Source of the DNA: a virus
Taxonomy: Duplodnaviria > Heunggongvirae > Uroviricota > Caudoviricetes
DNA: 37,772 nt
Virus record (IMG/VR): IMGVR_UViG_2563366960_000009
Location: 1 to 37,772 of that record
Reading direction: 5' to 3' (one strand)
Shown here: one piece after another, positions 2,453-9,545 of the stretch
Numbering within the stretch: the first letter of the stretch is position 1
How the letters are laid out: the number at the start of each line of letters is the position of its first letter
Notes under the pieces: generated by a model
The model's input: only the letters and a program-made list of their open reading frames with translations
Databases searched by the model: none
What the model was told of the DNA's origin: nothing
Translations under genes and position numbers: made by a program

Positions 2453-2731
2453 ATGACCAAAGAGCATGCACAAGGTGTATTTATCCGTTTTATTGATTTT
2501 CGCGGTGAACTGTTATTACGCGCATCGGCTATTGATGCTGTAGTCCCGGCAGCAAAAGATGTGGCTACTTACCTTTATCTGAACGGCACGCGATTGTTTG
2601 TGGAACTTCCGTACCAGACCGTGCGCGAAATTATTAGCGAAGCTGAAAAAGCACGTCAGGTTAATGGCGATGAACCCTATATCGAAATTATCTGCATGGA
2701 TTCAGAAGCTGAAATTCAAAAGGCAGATTAA
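2453..2731 (+). CDS. Early-operon hypothetical protein
   Basis: In-frame ATG at 2453 within ORF 2393..2731 (MTKEHAQGV...); tightly packed with neighbours. Confidence 0.5.
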   Translation: MTKEHAQGVFIRFIDFRGELLLRASAIDAVVPAAKDVATYLYLNGTRLFVELPYQTVREIISEAEKARQVNGDEPYIEIICMDSEAEIQKAD

Positions 2732-2742
2732 AGGGCGTTGCG

Positions 2743-2985
2743 ATGGATAAAGAATATAAAACTCTCGTCAATAAAGCACCTGAGCGCTTTCATTTTCGCA
2801 TAAGCGCATCAGGCACTCATGCTGAGCTCGCAGCCCGAGAGTCATTGACCAGGGCCATCAAGAGTATATACGACACAGCTTTTTACATTGACGACCCGGA
2901 CGCACTCGACGAGCTTTCCATTCTCGTCTGCGCCGCAGAAAACGGGCATCACATTGAACCGTATAACCTGGAGAGTATCGCATGA
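2743..2985 (+). CDS. Early-operon hypothetical protein
   Basis: 80-aa ORF, co-directional, short intergenic gaps. Confidence 0.5.
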   Translation: MDKEYKTLVNKAPERFHFRISASGTHAELAARESLTRAIKSIYDTAFYIDDPDALDELSILVCAAENGHHIEPYNLESIA

Positions 2986-3187
2986 GCATATTTATCTCAT
3001 GGCTTGTTCTGATTATTTCGGTGACCAGTGCCATTGGAATTATGCGAATTATTCATTCAGTGAAAAAGATTGAGCGTTTTTTCTCTGACGAATAACAGCA
3101 CAAGTAAAACACCGGATTAAATAAGAAAACCTGAAAATTATCCGCACTCGCGGAGGTATTCGTACATCCAAATAACGGAGAAAGAAA

Positions 3188-3556
3188 ATGAACGCAAAAA
3201 CCGAAGACACCCTTATCTCTCTGAAAATGTTATCCGCGATGGAGCGTGAAATGCACGAGCGAGCAACAAAGGTAGGCGCTCACATTCTCAGCGTTCATGC
3301 ACTGATGGTAGCCGGCGTCATAGAAAATGCCGCCGAGCTCATCGAGGAGCAACACAAGGAAATTAGCGACCTTAAAGCTCAGCTCGCAAACGTAACATCT
3401 GCATCCGACAACAAAGGGAGAGCCGTTCGCCTGGCCAACATGGATGCTTGCATTTATGTAATCGTGGGTGAAAACCCGGACCTTTTCCTTCTGAGACGAC
3501 TAACCGAAGACAGGGCATTTGAAGTCCACAAGTCCGAAGTGACCTTCATTAGCTGA
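3188..3556 (+). CDS. Early-operon hypothetical protein
   Basis: 122-aa ORF with GGAG site upstream. Confidence 0.5.
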   Translation: MNAKTEDTLISLKMLSAMEREMHERATKVGAHILSVHALMVAGVIENAAELIEEQHKEISDLKAQLANVTSASDNKGRAVRLANMDACIYVIVGENPDLFLLRRLTEDRAFEVHKSEVTFIS

Positions 3557-3567
3557 CGGGCGATGCA

Positions 3568-3897
3568 ATGGAAAAGCTGAAATACCACATGACTCTGATG
3601 AGTCACATTCTGAAAAGCGCAAGTGGCTTTTATGTATACCCGTTCAGCCCTTCATGGGATTCGGAGCTACAGCAGCTACTGAATGAAGGCATTCTCATCG
3701 CAACGAGCAAGTACAACGCGATTTTTCATCACAACGGCAACGTCGTTGAAGTATGGATTGCTAATCGCTGGTACGGCTACGGCTGGCTGAACCGCGTTAA
3801 CGGACGCGAGACTGACACCCCTTGCACCCGCCCACGCTTTCGCACCATGTACCGCCTGCATCAAATGGTGCAGGCCTTCCAGGCTAAGGAAACGTAA
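3568..3897 (+). CDS. Early-operon hypothetical protein
   Basis: 109-aa ORF; its stop overlaps the next start. Confidence 0.5.
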   Translation: MEKLKYHMTLMSHILKSASGFYVYPFSPSWDSELQQLLNEGILIATSKYNAIFHHNGNVVEVWIANRWYGYGWLNRVNGRETDTPCTRPRFRTMYRLHQMVQAFQAKET

Positions 3898-4100
3898 TGG
3901 CAATTAAGCGATTTACCGTCGTTCGTTTCACTTCCAGAGGACGTGAATACGAAGTTGACGAACGGCTGATTAAAACGCTCGACCGTCACCGTTCGCAACC
4001 TGACGCGCATCACATTTATCTCACTGACGACACTTACTTCTGCGCCACCAACGTGGTGCAGGTGAATCTTATCAGACAGGTACAGGAGTCACGCAGATGA
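3897..4100 (+). CDS. Early-operon hypothetical small protein
   Basis: 67-aa ORF, translationally coupled to neighbours. Confidence 0.45.
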   Translation: MAIKRFTVVRFTSRGREYEVDERLIKTLDRHRSQPDAHHIYLTDDTYFCATNVVQVNLIRQVQESRR

Positions 4101-4342
4101 CCATTCTGGACTACATCGCCGCCAATCCGGGGTGTAGCGGTGGAGAAATCGCCGCAGCACTGAATACCCCAACCACAGCCATTAATGCGGAGTTACGCCG
4201 TCTCTGGCGCAGCGGTTCAGTCATAAGAAAAGAACGCAAAACAGGCGGTCGCTTTTCTTATCAGGTAAACCCGATGCCGTTCGGGTGCGGCAATCCACTT
4301 ACCAACATGTTTAACCAGCTACTGAAGGAAGCCAGAGCATGA
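4097..4342 (+). CDS. Small putative winged-helix DNA-binding protein
   Basis: 81-aa ORF; overlapping stop/start with both neighbours. DNA-binding call is a guess from sequence character. Confidence 0.45.
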   Translation: MTILDYIAANPGCSGGEIAAALNTPTTAINAELRRLWRSGSVIRKERKTGGRFSYQVNPMPFGCGNPLTNMFNQLLKEARA

Positions 4343-4638
4343 GCGCCATCAACCACCAGGAATTACGCGAACTGGCATTTGCCCTGCAACGAATGGCAAC
4401 GCATCAAAAATTACTGGCGTTTCGCGCAATGCTCTCGCCGTCTGCCGTGCTGGCGCTACTGGATGAACTGGAGCACGCCAGAACCACGGCTCCTGCCATT
4501 CGCCTGACGCTCCATCATGAAATCGCTGATTTCTGCGCGACGCTGGAGGCACCAGGCGAACCGGAAACGCCGGAAGCAATGCAGCAGGAGCTGCTGCAAC
4601 GCATCGACAACGTTTTCGATTTTTTCCTTAACCAGTAA
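4339..4638 (+). CDS. Early-operon hypothetical protein
   Basis: 99-aa ORF, start overlaps the previous stop. Confidence 0.45.
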   Translation: MSAINHQELRELAFALQRMATHQKLLAFRAMLSPSAVLALLDELEHARTTAPAIRLTLHHEIADFCATLEAPGEPETPEAMQQELLQRIDNVFDFFLNQ

Positions 4639-4649
4639 AGGACCGCGAC

Positions 4650-4853
4650 ATGAACAAAAAGACCTGGTTTCGCGCATACATGTGGGCGCTGGTATGCGTC
4701 CTCGTCTCTCTCATTCTGTATGCAGGACTACTCCCCCGAATGATTTCATCAGACAGCTCCTTCCTGGTATTGCTGGGAATTTTCATTGCCATGCTGTACC
4801 CGGCAGGCGTTGTTCGCCTTTTCAGTAAGTACATCAAGGAAATCAAACAATGA
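4650..4853 (+). CDS. Small two-helix membrane protein, partner of the SPFH lipoprotein
   Basis: 67 aa with two hydrophobic helices (WALVCVLVSLILYAGLL and FLVLLGIFIAMLYPAGVV); stop overlaps the ATG of the next gene (ATGA). Confidence 0.55.
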   Translation: MNKKTWFRAYMWALVCVLVSLILYAGLLPRMISSDSSFLVLLGIFIAMLYPAGVVRLFSKYIKEIKQ

Positions 4854-5680
4854 AGAAATTCAAACTCTTTCAGATTCTCCCGCTTTTTGCCGCCATCCTG
4901 CTGGTTGGTTGCGATCGCGTTGAGCCAGGTAATGTGGGCATCAAAGTCAACAAACTGGGCGACGACAAAGGCGTCGGTGAAGTGGTTGGCGTTGGCCGCT
5001 ACTGGACAGGCTGGAATACAGAGGTTTACATCTTCCCGACCTTCAAACAAATGAAGACTTACGATGAGCCGTTCAACTTCCAGATGAGTGACGGCACAAC
5101 CATCGGCTATCACATCGGCGTGGCCTACAAAGTTGATCCATCCAAAGTTACCACGGTGTTTCAGACCTACCGCAAAGGCGTGGACGACATTACCGACACT
5201 GACCTGCGCCAGAAGATCGCCGATGCACTCAACCGACTGGCCAGCAAAATGACCACCGATAAGTTTATCGACGGTGGTAAGTCTGAACTGCTGGATTCAG
5301 CACTTAAAGATATTCAGGAAGAGATGACCCCCATCGGTATTCAGGTCATGAGCCTCTCTTATGTCGGTAAACCGGAATATCCGCCAACCGTTATCGACAG
5401 CATTAACGCCAAAGTCACGGCAAACCAGAAAACCCTGCAACGCGAACAGGAAGTCAAGCAACGCGAAGCAGAAGCCAACATGTTGCGCGCAGAAGCTGCC
5501 GGACAGGCCGATGCCATTCGCACAAAAGCCCAGGCTGAAGCCGACGCCATTCGTTTACGCGGCGAAGCTCTGCGCCAGAATCCCGGTGTTATGGAGCTGG
5601 AAGCGATCAACAAATGGAACGGCACGCTGCCGCAATACATGACCAGTAACACCGCTGTTCCGTTCGTTCCCGTGAAGTAA
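4850..5680 (+). CDS. SPFH/band-7 (prohibitin/stomatin-like) lipoprotein
   Basis: 276 aa. N-terminal signal peptide with lipobox LLVGC. C-terminal Ala/Glu/Arg/Gln-rich coiled-coil (QREQEVKQREAEANMLRAEAAGQADAIRTKAQAEADAIRLRGEALRQNP) typical of SPFH proteins. Confidence 0.7.
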   Translation: MKKFKLFQILPLFAAILLVGCDRVEPGNVGIKVNKLGDDKGVGEVVGVGRYWTGWNTEVYIFPTFKQMKTYDEPFNFQMSDGTTIGYHIGVAYKVDPSKVTTVFQTYRKGVDDITDTDLRQKIADALNRLASKMTTDKFIDGGKSELLDSALKDIQEEMTPIGIQVMSLSYVGKPEYPPTVIDSINAKVTANQKTLQREQEVKQREAEANMLRAEAAGQADAIRTKAQAEADAIRLRGEALRQNPGVMELEAINKWNGTLPQYMTSNTAVPFVPVK

Positions 5681-5842
5681 TGACACCCGGCCAGTGCAAA
5701 CCGCTGGCCGGAGCAGTATCAGGATTTTTTAGTATGCCGTTCTCACAAAAAAACCGCTTGCCATGCCGCAATCAGTCAGGTTACATTTTCGCTGCACCTC
5801 ATAAAACGGGTGCCGGGTTTCGCAGCCTGCTGACTACAAGAG

Positions 5843-5874
5843 CGCACAACCGCGCCAGCGGTTTTTTTGTGCGT
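5843..5874 (+). terminator. Putative intrinsic terminator (GC stem followed by a 7-T run) inside a 370-bp non-coding region
   Basis: gcgcacaaccgcgccagcggtttttttgtgcg: stem aaccgc/gcggtt then TTTTTTT. Confidence 0.35.
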
Positions 5875-6047
5875 ACTGTATTGCCACGTTTTTTTCGCGT
5901 CAGAATTATGGCGGGGCGTACGGGGCCGACTTCGGTCGGGCCGGGATCTCTTGTAGCCGGTACTGCGAACCTCGTACGTCTCGCCACCCACAGTTTCGCA
6001 GCTCTGGATGGTGAGTTTTCACAACTTACTACAAGAGGCCACATATC

Positions 6048-6278
6048 ATGGCAAACAGCAAACAGCACCGCGCTATCGCGGAGCGTCGCCACATCCAGAC
6101 TGAAATCGACCGCAGACTCACCCGCGCTGCACACATCGCCTTTATCATGCAATCCAACGCATTGCACAGGCTCAACAGTACTATTTCAGCCGACTACTGC
6201 GCCGCTGTATTCAGCTATCTGGCGGAAGACCTCCTGTCTCTTCAGGATCTCATCCAGCAGCAAAACAAACTCCATTAA
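6048..6278 (+). CDS. Hypothetical protein upstream of the replication gene
   Basis: 76-aa ORF with ATG start. Confidence 0.4.
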   Translation: MANSKQHRAIAERRHIQTEIDRRLTRAAHIAFIMQSNALHRLNSTISADYCAAVFSYLAEDLLSLQDLIQQQNKLH

Positions 6279-6350
6279 TTCCTGTTCCGGGCCTTTCCTG
6301 CACCTTGCGGCGGGAGGCCTTCGCACATCTGTAACAAGAGGATTGCCGCA

Positions 6351-6716
6351 ATGATTCTCGCCAACGACTTTCTTGAATACCTGCTCAACACAGAGCGTGA
6401 TCTTGCCGCTCGCGTACGTGATCGTTATGACATGTATCTGAAATCCCTGCCTGTACCGCAGCTCGCTGACGGAAAAATTGTTATTGATGGTCGCTACATG
6501 ATTGACAGCCACGAGGGGAATTACAGGCTTTACCGCATTGAAGCCGGCACCCCGTCCGTTATTGGCATTTACCAGCGCCCATCCTCTGCGATCGTCGATG
6601 TGATTGCCGACAGCATCCGCATCACACACCACCATGCCGACACAGAAGACACTGTGCTGGAGATTCAGCGGCTGGCTGCCGTTTGCCGTGACACTCTGAA
6701 CGGAATGACGAAGTAA
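6351..6716 (+). CDS. Hypothetical protein immediately upstream of A (position of P2 B / 186 CP8x genes)
   Basis: 121-aa ORF ending 7 bp before the A start. Confidence 0.5.
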   Translation: MILANDFLEYLLNTERDLAARVRDRYDMYLKSLPVPQLADGKIVIDGRYMIDSHEGNYRLYRIEAGTPSVIGIYQRPSSAIVDVIADSIRITHHHADTEDTVLEIQRLAAVCRDTLNGMTK

Positions 6717-6722
6717 ATCAGT

Positions 6723-9545
6723 ATGACGACAGAGTACATCAGGGACTGGCAACAACCGCGCCACACAGTAGGACGTGAAGGAACGGAGATCCCCGCACCT
6801 GAATCCGCACTTTCCTCCTGGCTGGATGCCTACCGGGCAGAGAACGAACGCCGCCAGGAAATGGCTGATGCGGCGTTCTCCGCCACACCGCTGGGCAACC
6901 TGATTAATAAAAGCCTGGACGCACAGGAAAAACAGGACAAAACCATCACACTGGCCAGAGAAGCCAGAAAACAGGCACGCGGCGCGGTGGATGAAGCCAT
7001 GGCCTCGCTGCGCCTGCTGCCATCCTATCTGCGCGATCCGCTTATTCGCCACCTCTCCTTCCTGCGCAAAAAACAGGAAGCCGATCGCCGGAAAGGCAAA
7101 AAGAGCTGGCAGGCGGAACGCTATGCACGCGGAACCCTGCGCAAAATATTCGAACGTCTGGATCGCACTGACGGACGCTGGCTGACACCGGGTTATCGCT
7201 CCCTTGCCGGACGCGAACGCCTGGACGATTTGCTTTACCTGCCGCAGCTCAACAAACACCAGATACAGACGCTGGCCACCATGACGGCGGCGATGTTCAG
7301 CAGCACCTTCGAAAAACTCTGCGATGGCTTTGGCGCGACCGATGGCGAACTGACCATGGATGTAACGCTGAAGGCGTATCAGATGCTGGCCCGCATGGCG
7401 TTACACCTGCACATCATGCCTCCACATTATGACGCACTGACAACAGATAAAGACCGGAGGAACGAACCGGACACGGAGCTGCTGCCGGGCGCAATCCTTC
7501 GCCTGACCTGTGCTGAATGGTGGAAACGCAAACTGTGGCTGTTACGTTGCGAGTGGAGAGAAGAACAACTCCGCGCCGCCTGTCTGGTTTCCAGAAAAAC
7601 ATCGCCCTATCTGAGCCAGGACGCATTAAGCGAGTTTCGCGCACAGCGCGAGAAAACACGCGATTTCCTGAAAAGTTTCATGCTGGAAAACGAAGACGGG
7701 TTCACGATTGATCTCGAGACAGTGTATTACGCGGGAGTAAGTAACCCGGTTCACCGTAAGGCAGAAATGATGGCCACCATGAAGGGGCTGGAACTTCTGG
7801 CCGAAGCCCGTGGCGACAGAGCGGTGTTTCTGACTGTCACCTGCCCGTCAAAATACCATGCCACAACAGAGAACGGTCATCCGAATCCCAAATGGAACGG
7901 GGCCACCATGCGCGACTCCAGCGATTACCTGGTTAACACGTTTTTTGCAGCGGTCCGCAAAAAACTGAACCGCGACGGCCTTCGTTGGTATGGCATCCGC
8001 ACGGTGGAGCCTCACCATGACGGCACTGTGCACTGGCATATGATGGTCTTTGCTCATCCGGAAGAAATCGACAGCATCGTGGCCATCACCCGCGATATTG
8101 CCATTCAGGAAGACCGCCACGAGCTGGGCGATGACATAACTCCGCGTTTTAAAGCGGAGTACGTCGACGGCTCAAAAGGCACGCCAACCAGCTACATCGC
8201 CACCTACATCGGAAAAAACCTGAGCAGCCGCGCCGTGGATGGTATCGACCCAAAAACGGGCAAGCCACGCGTTGACCATGAAACCGGAAAATCAATGGCC
8301 GAGAGCGTGGAGCGCGCTATCGGCTGGGCACGCCTTCACCGGGTCCGCCAGTTCCAGTTCTTTGGCATCCCCTCCCGTCAGGTGTGGCGTGAACTGCGCC
8401 GCCTTGCCAGCCAGATGGCACGCAACCCGGAAGGCCCGCAACGGCTGAAGGATGACGCAATGGATGCGGTTCTTGCTGCCGCTGATGCCGGATGTTTTGC
8501 CACCTACATAGAGAAACAGGGCGGCGTTCTTGTTCCACGCAAAGACTACCTGATTCGCACCGCCTACGACCTCGCAGATGAGCTGAACGATTACGGCGAA
8601 CAGAGCGTACAGATTTACGGGATCTGGTCGCCACTCATCGGGGAATCCTCCCGTGTGTGCACGCATCCGGATAACTGGAAGCTGGTAAGACGTAAACCGG
8701 AAACGGAAGACAGCGCCCGCGAAAATGGTTTTGACCTTCAGGGCGGCCCTGCCGCCCCTTGGACTCGTGGCAATAACTGTCCCCGTGTACAGGAAACGGA
8801 CAACAACGGGACAGAACAGCCGGAAGAACGGCCAGCACCGTGGCCGCAGCTTCCTGACAGCGTTGATGTGGATGAATGGATGCGCTCACTGAAACGGCAC
8901 GAACGCCGGGCGCTGATGCGTTCGCTGCGTGACAAACAGGCAAAAAACAGCAGTGATGAAATGCAGAACTGGACACAGAGCCGCAAACAGCCACAGCCTT
9001 TGCCTGATAACCACGAGTTACTCGCTAAAGAATGGCGGGAGTCTGCTGAATCTCTCGGCCTGCATATCGGTGAACAGCAGATGCAGCACCTGTTACGGGG
9101 CGGCAGCCTGTACGTTGACGGCAGCATCATTGCACCGCAGGGATATGAAATTGTACGTAAACCGGATACCCGCCCGGACAGCCGAATCACGCAGCTCTGG
9201 CAACGCCTGAGCCGTAACCACGGCGTAAGCAGCACGGAGATCCGCCATAACCCGGTCGCCAGCTATCTGGAACAACTAGGGGCATCAGACCCTGAAGCCG
9301 CCGCACGCCTGGCATCCACACTTCAGCAAGACCAGAACACCATGAAAACACCCGTTACCGTACTTTCTGACATGCTGCGCGCCATCCGCGACGCAGAGCA
9401 CGAACAGAGAATCAGTGAAACAACTGAACGCGCCCGCCGCAAAGCAGACCTGCTGCGGGGTGGCCTGACCAGTGGAAACAAAAAACAGACAAAAACGGGA
9501 TTCACAAATCCCGTAAATGAGCAAAAAACGCGCCGCGATATATGA
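6723..9545 (+). CDS. Replication initiation endonuclease (P2 gpA-like rolling-circle initiator), with a long C-terminal extension
   Basis: 940 aa. HUH-like motif TVHWHMMVF and paired tyrosines in SYIATYIGKN match the P2 A family. Longer than P2 A as I recall it (about 760 aa). Confidence 0.85.
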   Translation: MTTEYIRDWQQPRHTVGREGTEIPAPESALSSWLDAYRAENERRQEMADAAFSATPLGNLINKSLDAQEKQDKTITLAREARKQARGAVDEAMASLRLLPSYLRDPLIRHLSFLRKKQEADRRKGKKSWQAERYARGTLRKIFERLDRTDGRWLTPGYRSLAGRERLDDLLYLPQLNKHQIQTLATMTAAMFSSTFEKLCDGFGATDGELTMDVTLKAYQMLARMALHLHIMPPHYDALTTDKDRRNEPDTELLPGAILRLTCAEWWKRKLWLLRCEWREEQLRAACLVSRKTSPYLSQDALSEFRAQREKTRDFLKSFMLENEDGFTIDLETVYYAGVSNPVHRKAEMMATMKGLELLAEARGDRAVFLTVTCPSKYHATTENGHPNPKWNGATMRDSSDYLVNTFFAAVRKKLNRDGLRWYGIRTVEPHHDGTVHWHMMVFAHPEEIDSIVAITRDIAIQEDRHELGDDITPRFKAEYVDGSKGTPTSYIATYIGKNLSSRAVDGIDPKTGKPRVDHETGKSMAESVERAIGWARLHRVRQFQFFGIPSRQVWRELRRLASQMARNPEGPQRLKDDAMDAVLAAADAGCFATYIEKQGGVLVPRKDYLIRTAYDLADELNDYGEQSVQIYGIWSPLIGESSRVCTHPDNWKLVRRKPETEDSARENGFDLQGGPAAPWTRGNNCPRVQETDNNGTEQPEERPAPWPQLPDSVDVDEWMRSLKRHERRALMRSLRDKQAKNSSDEMQNWTQSRKQPQPLPDNHELLAKEWRESAESLGLHIGEQQMQHLLRGGSLYVDGSIIAPQGYEIVRKPDTRPDSRITQLWQRLSRNHGVSSTEIRHNPVASYLEQLGASDPEAAARLASTLQQDQNTMKTPVTVLSDMLRAIRDAEHEQRISETTERARRKADLLRGGLTSGNKKQTKTGFTNPVNEQKTRRDI

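Follow-up and report, generated by a model that had tools for sequence, protein, structure and literature searches.

A coupled membrane hairpin and SPFH lipoprotein gene pair as accessory cargo in the early operon of a P88-like prophage

The IMG/VR virus record IMGVR_UViG_2563366960_000009 was analysed over its positions 1 to 37,772 (this whole stretch of 37,772 nucleotides is referred to as the window) and represents a phage of the P2 type from the Xuanwuvirus (P88) group. Over 3880-7000, P88 itself is 94% identical to the window. Its early operon contains two overlapping plus-strand genes, which encode a 67 amino acid protein with two predicted helices (4650-4853; termed the partner below) and a 276 amino acid lipoprotein with an SPFH/Band_7 domain (4850-5680). 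The stop codon of the partner gene overlaps the start codon of the SPFH gene by the four nucleotides ATGA (caATGAag, 4850-4853). An earlier reading of the letters alone (the original prediction) had placed both open reading frames (ORFs) exactly, with the correct size for the partner, and its proposal of a translational coupling agrees with the observed ATGA overlap. Searches with PHROG profiles assigned the partner to phrog_1130 (expectation value (E) 1.3e-22) and the SPFH protein to phrog_200 (E 2.6e-112). The pair corresponds to gp11 and gp12 of P88, annotated there as 'membrane protein' and 'lipoprotein', and P88 gp12 is 99.6% identical to the SPFH protein of the window. The genes have therefore been annotated before, although with descriptive names only; what is new is the recognition of a phage-borne SPFH operon in which a lipid-anchored SPFH protein, predicted to face the periplasm, is combined with a hairpin protein that is not NfeD. 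The locus is an accessory cargo pair of a P88-like prophage and not a new class of element.

The SPFH protein starts with a lipoprotein signal peptide (4850-4915, plus strand), recognised from its sequence and composed of MKKFK, a hydrophobic stretch and the lipobox L-V-G-C21, which is followed by Asp22 (MKKFKLFQILPLFAAILLVG-C21-D22). The Pfam Band_7 profile (PF01145) covers residues 23-209 with an E of 3e-31 and 109.2 bits (cut-off 23.6), and together with the lipobox this profile match bears out the earlier call of an SPFH lipoprotein. The SPFH domain begins two residues past the acylated cysteine, and residues G20, C21 and D22 hardly vary among 32 close relatives. In E. coli, an aspartate at position +2 of a lipoprotein leads to retention in the inner membrane. 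Because Asp22 occupies this position, the lipoprotein is predicted to be kept in the inner membrane, with its SPFH domain in the periplasm.

The AlphaFold model of the protein (predicted local distance difference test (pLDDT) score 74) consists of strands between residues 20 and 95, helices between 97 and 162 and a 65-residue helix from 179 to 243, followed by a C-terminal tail of low confidence. When this model was compared with the PDB by Foldseek, the top matches were prohibitin, HflK/C, erlin, stomatin, flotillin and QmcA-YbbJ, with E-values from 1e-13 to 1e-8. These matches are full-length membrane-cage subunits, and the probability was 1.00 for prohibitin, HflK/C, erlin, stomatin and flotillin; the matched entries include human prohibitin (8rrh), HflK/C with or without FtsH (7vhq, 7wi3, 9cz2), erlin1/2 and QmcA-YbbJ (8z5g). 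By sequence, HflK (E 1e-4) and the coiled coil of prohibitin-2 (E 4e-3) are the nearest relatives with a solved structure, and the only ones. The best NCBIfam models, TIGR01932 (HflC, 25.7 versus 134.4 bits) and TIGR01933 (HflK, 23.5 versus 159.4 bits), both score far under their cut-offs, and for this reason the protein is placed outside the HflK/C family, even though it resembles cage formers. As judged from its model, it shows every architectural element of the SPFH proteins that form cages. The label 'serine protease', which is found on L05 of phiP27 and on the copies in Shiga toxin (Stx) phages, can be dismissed, since Band_7 is the only domain detected and a protease domain was not found in these searches. 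The label 'transposase fusion protein', given to the SPFH lipoprotein in Burkholderia and Pseudomonas phages, likewise appears to be a propagated error.

The sequence of the SPFH protein is under very strong constraint. Changes were counted for the mature protein (codons 22-266) in pairwise comparisons with the window. The comparison with phiP27 yielded 4 nonsynonymous and 61 synonymous changes, corresponding to a ratio of nonsynonymous to synonymous divergence (dN/dS) of 0.014 at a synonymous divergence (dS) of 0.51. For a Stx-type copy the respective values were 6 and 82 changes, dN/dS 0.013 and dS 0.82, and for P88 they were 1 and 17 changes, dN/dS 0.016 and dS 0.11. The protein is 97-99% identical among unrelated temperate phages (phiP27, Stx copies), but a synonymous divergence of 0.5-0.8 rules out recent horizontal transfer as the cause of this identity, which is instead explained by purifying selection. 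The partners of those same phages are only 22-46% identical, and within the P88 type the partner dN/dS is roughly 0.2-0.7, based on small counts; the neighbouring Ead-like gene has a dN/dS of about 0.25. A frozen SPFH protein next to a freely diverging partner can be explained by a large structure that assembles itself, or by a host target that is conserved and approached via a loosely constrained membrane adaptor, and it is less typical of proteins engaged in an arms race.

The partner is modelled by AlphaFold (pLDDT 85) as a helix from residue 3 to 32, a four-residue turn (S33-S-D-S36) and a second helix from 37 to 66. Basic residues are found at both ends of the protein (K3, K4 and R8; R56, K60, K63 and K66). 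The basic ends of a membrane protein face the cytoplasm according to the positive-inside rule, and the partner is therefore predicted to form an inner-membrane hairpin with both termini in the cytoplasm and the turn in the periplasm. The original prediction had pointed to the NfeD-like proteins as frequent companions of SPFH proteins and suggested a profile search for both; this search detected Band_7 in the SPFH gene and no NfeD in the partner. As no Pfam match to NfeD appeared up to an E of 5 and all 67 residues are accounted for by the hairpin, an NfeD identity is ruled out. No Pfam family (matches up to E 5 were noise), NCBIfam model or PADLOC model matched the partner, and a profile of its family returned only noise against the PDB, YbbJ of 8z5g included.

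The partner belongs to a large, phage-associated family. A profile built from 25 partners retrieved 953 clusters at E of at most 1e-3 from 1.84 billion proteins, counted as representatives at 50% identity, with lengths of 47-88 amino acids. The source names seen for this family are 'hypothetical' or 'membrane protein', except for one evidently stray 'glycosyltransferase family 4, partial', and a Pfam domain was found in none of these proteins. A common signature, anchored on an invariant proline that ends the first helix, is present in 140 of 141 representatives. Relative to this proline, it comprises Gly at -4 (91%), Leu at +2 (83%), Ile or Val at +3, Ser at +4 (100%), Asp or Ser at +7, Thr or Asp at +8, Val at +11 (85%) and Gly at +14 (97%), or in short form P-x-L-[IV]-S...G. 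In the window partner it reads G26-L-L-P29-R-M-I-S33-S-D-S-S-F-L-V40-L-L-G43, where Pro29 is the invariant residue and Ser33 and Gly43 are conserved at 90% or more. The signature is located at the predicted periplasmic turn and may mark the interface with the SPFH protein or may reflect a plain requirement for helix capping. In one natural protein (P0001, 347 amino acids), a Stx-type partner and the SPFH lipoprotein are joined in a single reading frame; this fusion probably results from a frameshift or a sequencing error, and its order of hairpin, signal-peptide helix and SPFH domain is topologically consistent with the orientations predicted for the separate proteins.

The pair is not confined to P2-type phages. 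Relatives of the SPFH protein were detected by tblastn in 798 of 50,697 phage records, from temperate as well as virulent phages. In IMG/VR, such a relative is encoded on 402 viral contigs. Directly upstream, and mostly overlapping the SPFH start, a small hairpin ORF is found in phages well beyond the P2 type, and the pairing holds in 12 phage types. It is present in phiP27 (SPFH protein L05, L003 3447-4274) and Stx2-converting phages, Klebsiella phage P12620-1, the jumbo phage 7t3, the N4-like phage Moo19 (gp30/gp31, annotated as similar to N4 gp19/gp20), Pseudomonas phage 5400, Stenotrophomonas phage Pokken, Agrobacterium phage OLIVR5 and Burkholderia phage PhiBt-E264.1; the partner is often unannotated, as in phiP27, P12620-1 and Pokken. 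In KNP2 of the Vequintavirinae, one ORF lies between the partner and the SPFH gene. When the search was started from three partner proteins, all 13 places found had a Band_7 gene next to the partner with a 4-nucleotide overlap, and all 93 additional loci surveyed carry a partner. In lambdoid prophages the pair is located between a cI-type repressor and xis/int on the same strand, and it is the same SPFH gene that adjoins xis/int in the lambdoid phage phiP27 and in Stx phages. Because gene order and overlap recur in dozens of independent loci, and because nonsynonymous changes in the SPFH gene are few, both ORFs are genuine genes and not chance reading frames. The module is an optional, horizontally mobile two-gene phage unit of the same type as N4 gp19/gp20.

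Several variants of this arrangement exist. The SPFH gene of Erwinia phage Panisse has no membrane partner, that of Caulobacter phage CcrBL10 is combined with a three-helix protein, that of Kuttervirus PhiSH19 with an unrelated two-helix ORF, and in Staphylococcus Kayvirus the one-helix protein MbpV is encoded next to lysK. An identical arrangement of GP17 (Pfam PF17420), a small two-helix ORF and an SPFH lipoprotein was observed in PhiSH19 (L111 641-1958) and Moo19 (L084 891-2337). These are unrelated virulent phages of Salmonella (Ackermannviridae) and Shigella (Schitoviridae), respectively, whose GP17 proteins share 61% identity. In PhiSH19, the small ORF has a basic loop and represents a different family from the partner.

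Within P88-like phages, the pair lies on a cassette of 1,087 bp (4657-5743), which some genomes contain and others lack while being collinear elsewhere. In blastn comparisons with Xuanwuvirus P884B11 (L002), window 3880-4656 aligns with positions 2542-3318 and window 5744-7000 with positions 3319-4575; because the two flanks directly abut in this phage, 4657-5743 is a clean indel (insertion or deletion). E. coli B7A shows the same empty junction. The direct repeat ACAAAAA, 7 nucleotides long, occurs on the plus strand at both boundaries: its left copy (4654-4660) overlaps codons 2-4 of the partner and its right copy is located at 5745-5751, and the empty sites retain the ribosome-binding site and the ATG, followed by a single copy of the repeat. 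P88 is the sole phage record that shares the flanks and contains the cassette, which is missing from the other Xuanwuvirus records. Among 5,426 complete E. coli genomes, 141 have the cassette at this site and 955 have the empty junction, counted wherever 80% or more of a query spanning the junction was matched; in a few of these 955 genomes, the site contains a different small insert. With a carriage of about 13% of the P88-like prophages in these genomes, the pair is accessory cargo. The original prediction was thus right in placing the module outside the canonical P2/186 early region, and the 955 empty sites show that the pair does not occur in all P2-like phages at this locus.

At the same site, E. 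coli AST20 encodes a 183 amino acid protein with two winged-helix/helix-turn-helix motifs (L109 854-1405), for which domain and defence-model searches yielded no functional hint. Since different prophages hold different cargo here, the shared insertion site between an Ead/Ea22-like gene and the isrK/C4 region described below behaves as a small cargo hotspot.

The arrangement of the surrounding genes is that of an early operon. The window starts with the minus-strand genes for the integrase (1-1020) and a 211 amino acid repressor with two helix-turn-helix domains (1102-1737), followed by Cox on the plus strand (1802-2089) and, downstream of the cassette, by replication gene A (6723-9545). From Cox to the SPFH gene, ORFs are continuous on the plus strand with tiny gaps or overlaps, and the start codon of the partner is located 12 nucleotides past the stop codon of the preceding early gene. 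A consensus scan detected no sigma-70-like promoter on the plus strand between approximately 3100 and 5750. As the pair has no promoter-like site of its own and follows the upstream gene after only 12 nucleotides, the simplest reading of the sequence is that it would be expressed from the early lytic promoter. Presence or absence between collinear phages, which is one hallmark of a moron, is documented by the 1,087-bp indel and the counts of 141 versus 955. As to the second hallmark, a promoter and a terminator of its own, the consensus scan, which weak promoters may escape, found no sigma-70-like site upstream, and the hairpin after the stop codon is not a canonical terminator.

Two further differences from P88 were noted in this region. 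P88 encodes a 93 amino acid C protein (L001 1098-1379) at the position of the 211 amino acid double helix-turn-helix repressor, which implies that the window phage belongs to a different immunity type despite approximately 94% identity downstream. The second is an indel of 713 bp (window 3167-3879), across which P88 joins position 3166 directly to 3880; its ORFs 3188-3556 (122 amino acids, phrog_9338) and 3568-3897 (109 amino acids, phrog_16975) are both absent from P88. This interval is a further place in the early operon where the cargo varies.

Downstream of the pair, the original prediction had noticed terminator-like structures. A GC-rich hairpin (CCGGCCAGTG...CGCTGGCCGG; 5687-5711, plus strand) does exist within the cassette, 7 nucleotides past the SPFH stop codon, with a folding energy of -22 kcal/mol (z -2.5) in RNA folding. 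Its U-run is located 13 nucleotides downstream, which is why it is not called a terminator; it is possibly a weak terminator or an RNA-stabilising stem. The other structures belong mainly to the phage backbone and their reading as terminators is displaced by Rfam matches to an isrK-type RNA (5794-5868, plus strand; RF01394, 66.7 bits versus a gathering score of 50), which does possess a terminator of its own, and to a C4 antisense RNA (5904-5991, plus strand; RF01695, 81.1 bits versus a gathering score of 45). Promoter-like sites are present at 5758-5787 and 5881-5909. Further downstream, an antirepressor-type ORF of 76 amino acids (6048-6278, plus strand) is annotated in P88 as a 'derepression protein', and its match to the Pfam Derepression family is weak (E 1.6e-4, under the family cut-off). 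The loop of the C4 RNA (CUCUUGUAG) shows exact complementarity to two segments, 5834-5842 and 6029-6037, of which the second covers the AAGAGG ribosome-binding site of this ORF. Such an antisense logic underlies the c4/ant switch of the P1 immI region, and the 'derepression protein' is probably controlled by the C4 RNA. From its sequence, 5758-6278 can be regarded as a putative immI-like secondary immunity switch, which directly follows the cassette and would guard an antirepressor.

An ORF of 224 amino acids (5680-6354), whose start overlaps the SPFH stop codon, was considered as a third coupled gene. It was rejected because it crosses the isrK and C4 RNAs, and it is almost certainly not a gene. 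Its counterparts are a dubious 205 amino acid 'transcriptional regulator' of P884B11 (L002 3312-3929) and an 'ash family' pseudogene called by the Prokaryotic Genome Annotation Pipeline (PGAP) in E. coli (L109 1415-1678), and both annotations look like protein calls over non-coding RNA genes.

Taken together, a cage-like SPFH protein, a dedicated membrane hairpin and an early-operon position lead us to propose tentatively, and with limited confidence, that the module cages a client in the manner of HflK/C or prohibitin, and that this client is most likely FtsH or a different conserved component of the host. After induction or infection, the lipoprotein would be acylated and held in the inner membrane via Asp at +2. 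It would then oligomerise into a dome on the periplasmic face, as HflK/C does and as prohibitin does in topological terms. The hairpin, made in equal amounts, could provide the SPFH protein with the membrane span that it lacks, or could itself be the caged client. Dome and hairpin together would fence off a patch of the inner membrane early in lytic development, control the access to an inner-membrane client in a way comparable to HflK/C and condition the membrane for the early development of the phage. The module would not be a conversion factor expressed by the lysogen, and its occurrence in both virulent and temperate phages supports a role in lytic development.

Several points weigh against this proposal. 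Oligomerisation, localisation and client are all deduced from sequences and structural models. The module has a single SPFH gene instead of an HflK/HflC pair, its product shares only approximately 17% identity with HflK, and its NCBIfam HflK and HflC scores lie far under the cut-offs. The residue at +2 is not Asp throughout but Tyr in Moo19, Glu in KNP2 and Ser, Ala or Gly in others, which makes inner-membrane retention uncertain across the family. The conserved turn of the partner may be merely structural and serve helix capping rather than an interface. As the promoter scan relied on a consensus, a weak internal promoter active in lysogens might have escaped it. To our knowledge, P2-type phages have no FtsH-sensitive switch. 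Finally, 87% of the close relatives are devoid of the module, which is consequently not essential.

A broader version of client caging is possible, if somewhat doubtful: the pair could be a phage-specific 'split' SPFH cage, composed of a lipid-anchored shell and a hairpin of an unnamed family, and used by many phage families as a general device to seize a patch of the inner membrane. Such a cage might mimic HflK/C and capture FtsH or a different conserved machine of the host, or it might form a generic barrier to incoming phage DNA or to membrane-attacking abortive-infection effectors. If so, the frozen SPFH protein and the diverging partner would reflect a conserved host target and a variable adaptor. 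In the full-text literature, we found no functional or structural study of the phage SPFH family, only genome notes and one report on a Pasteurella prophage protein, considered below. Authors who met these genes called their role unclear (PMC13239085, PMC8540360), and across the wider set of reports it is either left unclear or guessed to be a control of lysogeny via FtsH (PMC13239085, PMC8540360, PMC10269572, PMC4936722).

The pair could alternatively serve superinfection exclusion, one of the roles that had been suggested initially; the cage and the hairpin would alter the periplasmic face of the inner membrane and thereby block the injection of DNA from a secondary phage. We consider this unlikely, although a number of observations are in line with it. 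The cargo is accessory, patchy and horizontally exchanged, it resides in the early operon, and the site predicted from the lipobox is the membrane face at which genomes enter. In addition, GP17, the 'superinfection exclusion gene product 17', is encoded directly upstream of the small ORF and the SPFH gene in Kuttervirus PhiSH19 and the N4-like phage Moo19, and exclusion would benefit temperate and virulent phages alike. However, a Pfam search did not find the GP17 gene in the window, and the same SPFH protein occurs in phages with unrelated entry routes (P2-type, lambdoid, N4-like and jumbo phages). Its almost frozen sequence (dN/dS approximately 0.014) is also unusual for proteins that are specific to an entry route or engaged in an arms race. 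PADLOC-DB 2.0 gave no significant match for the window pair or for the homologues of Moo19, Pseudomonas phage 5400 and phiP27, and the identity with a known defence system was rejected on this ground; the literature search returned no report of exclusion by these genes.

A role in lysis timing or membrane integrity appears improbable. The hairpin would act like a holin or antiholin, or the membrane would be stressed in another way during infection, and the SPFH cage would corral the hairpin or stabilise the membrane and so maintain the proton-motive force until the time of lysis; a related idea is the protection against membrane-attacking abortive-infection effectors. The partner resembles class II holins in its two helices and basic C-terminus, and in Kayvirus a distant SPFH homologue, MbpS, is encoded together with the small membrane protein MbpV in the order lysK-mbpV-mbpS, between lysK and tgl. 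The Kayvirus authors likened MbpV to holins (PMC7150955), and B. subtilis SPFH proteins with small membrane partners recruit the repair protein PspA (PMC8581546). Nevertheless, this link is drawn from analogy and gene order, and conservation of the partner is centred on the turn and not on the helices as in holins. Although the topology of the 67 amino acid protein fits a class II holin, its neighbours are early regulatory and replication genes without an endolysin, and no adjacent lysis gene is present within approximately 4 kb of the window pair.

Lysogenic conversion or a contribution to virulence, in which the lysogen would produce a surface-exposed or vesicle-borne lipoprotein that alters the envelope or immune signalling, is very unlikely and the weakest of the three roles put forward by the original prediction (the others being membrane remodelling and superinfection exclusion), given a repressed early operon with no promoter-like site for the pair, an Asp at +2 that predicts inner-membrane retention, and close relatives in strictly virulent phages that have no lysogen to convert. 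A possible parallel, likened by its description, is PM0222, the HflK/C-like protein of a Pasteurella multocida prophage. It was reported to occur in vesicles, to activate TLR1/2, to be required for virulence and to influence the capsule, adhesion and sensitivity to serum (PMC9872710); no other experimental work on an SPFH protein of a prophage was found in the literature.

High-resolution views of SPFH cages such as HflK/C, prohibitin, stomatin, flotillin and erlin are recent, and the biological principle behind these cages is still a matter of debate. A minimal version from viruses, consisting of one shell gene, a lipid anchor and a 67 amino acid hairpin, could provide a tractable model of how such cages select and isolate their clients. 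Hundreds of phages, both temperate and virulent, carry the SPFH module under extreme purifying selection, and the pair would add a widespread early phage function that is at present unlabelled or mislabelled as 'serine protease' or 'transposase fusion'.

Among the known systems, the HflK/HflC-FtsH cage (7vhp, 7vhq, 7wi3, 9cz2) and mitochondrial prohibitin PHB1/2 (8rrh) share with the window protein the SPFH domain, the long helix and the C-terminal cap region. Their SPFH side is extracytoplasmic and adjacent to the membrane anchor, and the same is predicted for the window protein from its sequence. In contrast to the two paralogous subunits of HflK/HflC, the window has one SPFH gene and a neighbour that encodes a 67 amino acid hairpin, and instead of the N-terminal transmembrane helix of HflK/HflC, its SPFH protein has a lipid anchor and is phage-borne and optional. 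In SPFH-NfeD operons, such as QmcA-YbbJ (8z5g) and PH1511-PH1510 of Pyrococcus, a small membrane-protein gene likewise adjoins the SPFH gene on the same strand, and the fold of QmcA matches the window SPFH protein with an E of 4e-8 (Foldseek). However, the partner in these operons contains an NfeD/OB-fold, whereas the window partner is devoid of it, and its gene precedes the SPFH gene and overlaps the start codon of the latter. QmcA has its SPFH domain on the cytoplasmic side, and for the window protein this domain is predicted to be periplasmic.

T4 Imm and Sp, gp15 of HK97 and SieA of P22 are small proteins of the inner membrane or periplasm, which are made early or from morons and act at genome entry. 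A functional analogy with the module is conceivable, but no homology was detected between them. We know of no SPFH domain in any of these proteins and of no exclusion phenotype of the module. In the SamGHI system of B. subtilis (YdjG/YdjH-YdjI) with PspA, an SPFH protein is likewise combined with small, dedicated membrane proteins of neighbouring genes. This SPFH protein reportedly relies on the small membrane proteins encoded next to it and serves in the handling of membrane stress (PMC8581546; bioRxiv 10.64898/2026.02.06.704340). It differs from the window protein in being cytosolic, host-encoded and linked to pspA, and no sequence relation of its partners to the window hairpin was found. 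Closest of all are gp11/gp12 of P88, gp30/gp31 of Moo19 (N4 gp19/gp20-type), L05 of phiP27 and the members of PHROG 1130 and 200, which are the same genes or clear homologues and nothing different in kind, even though the names on the P88, N4-type and phiP27 homologues are descriptive or wrong ('lipoprotein', 'membrane protein', 'serine protease' and 'transposase fusion protein').

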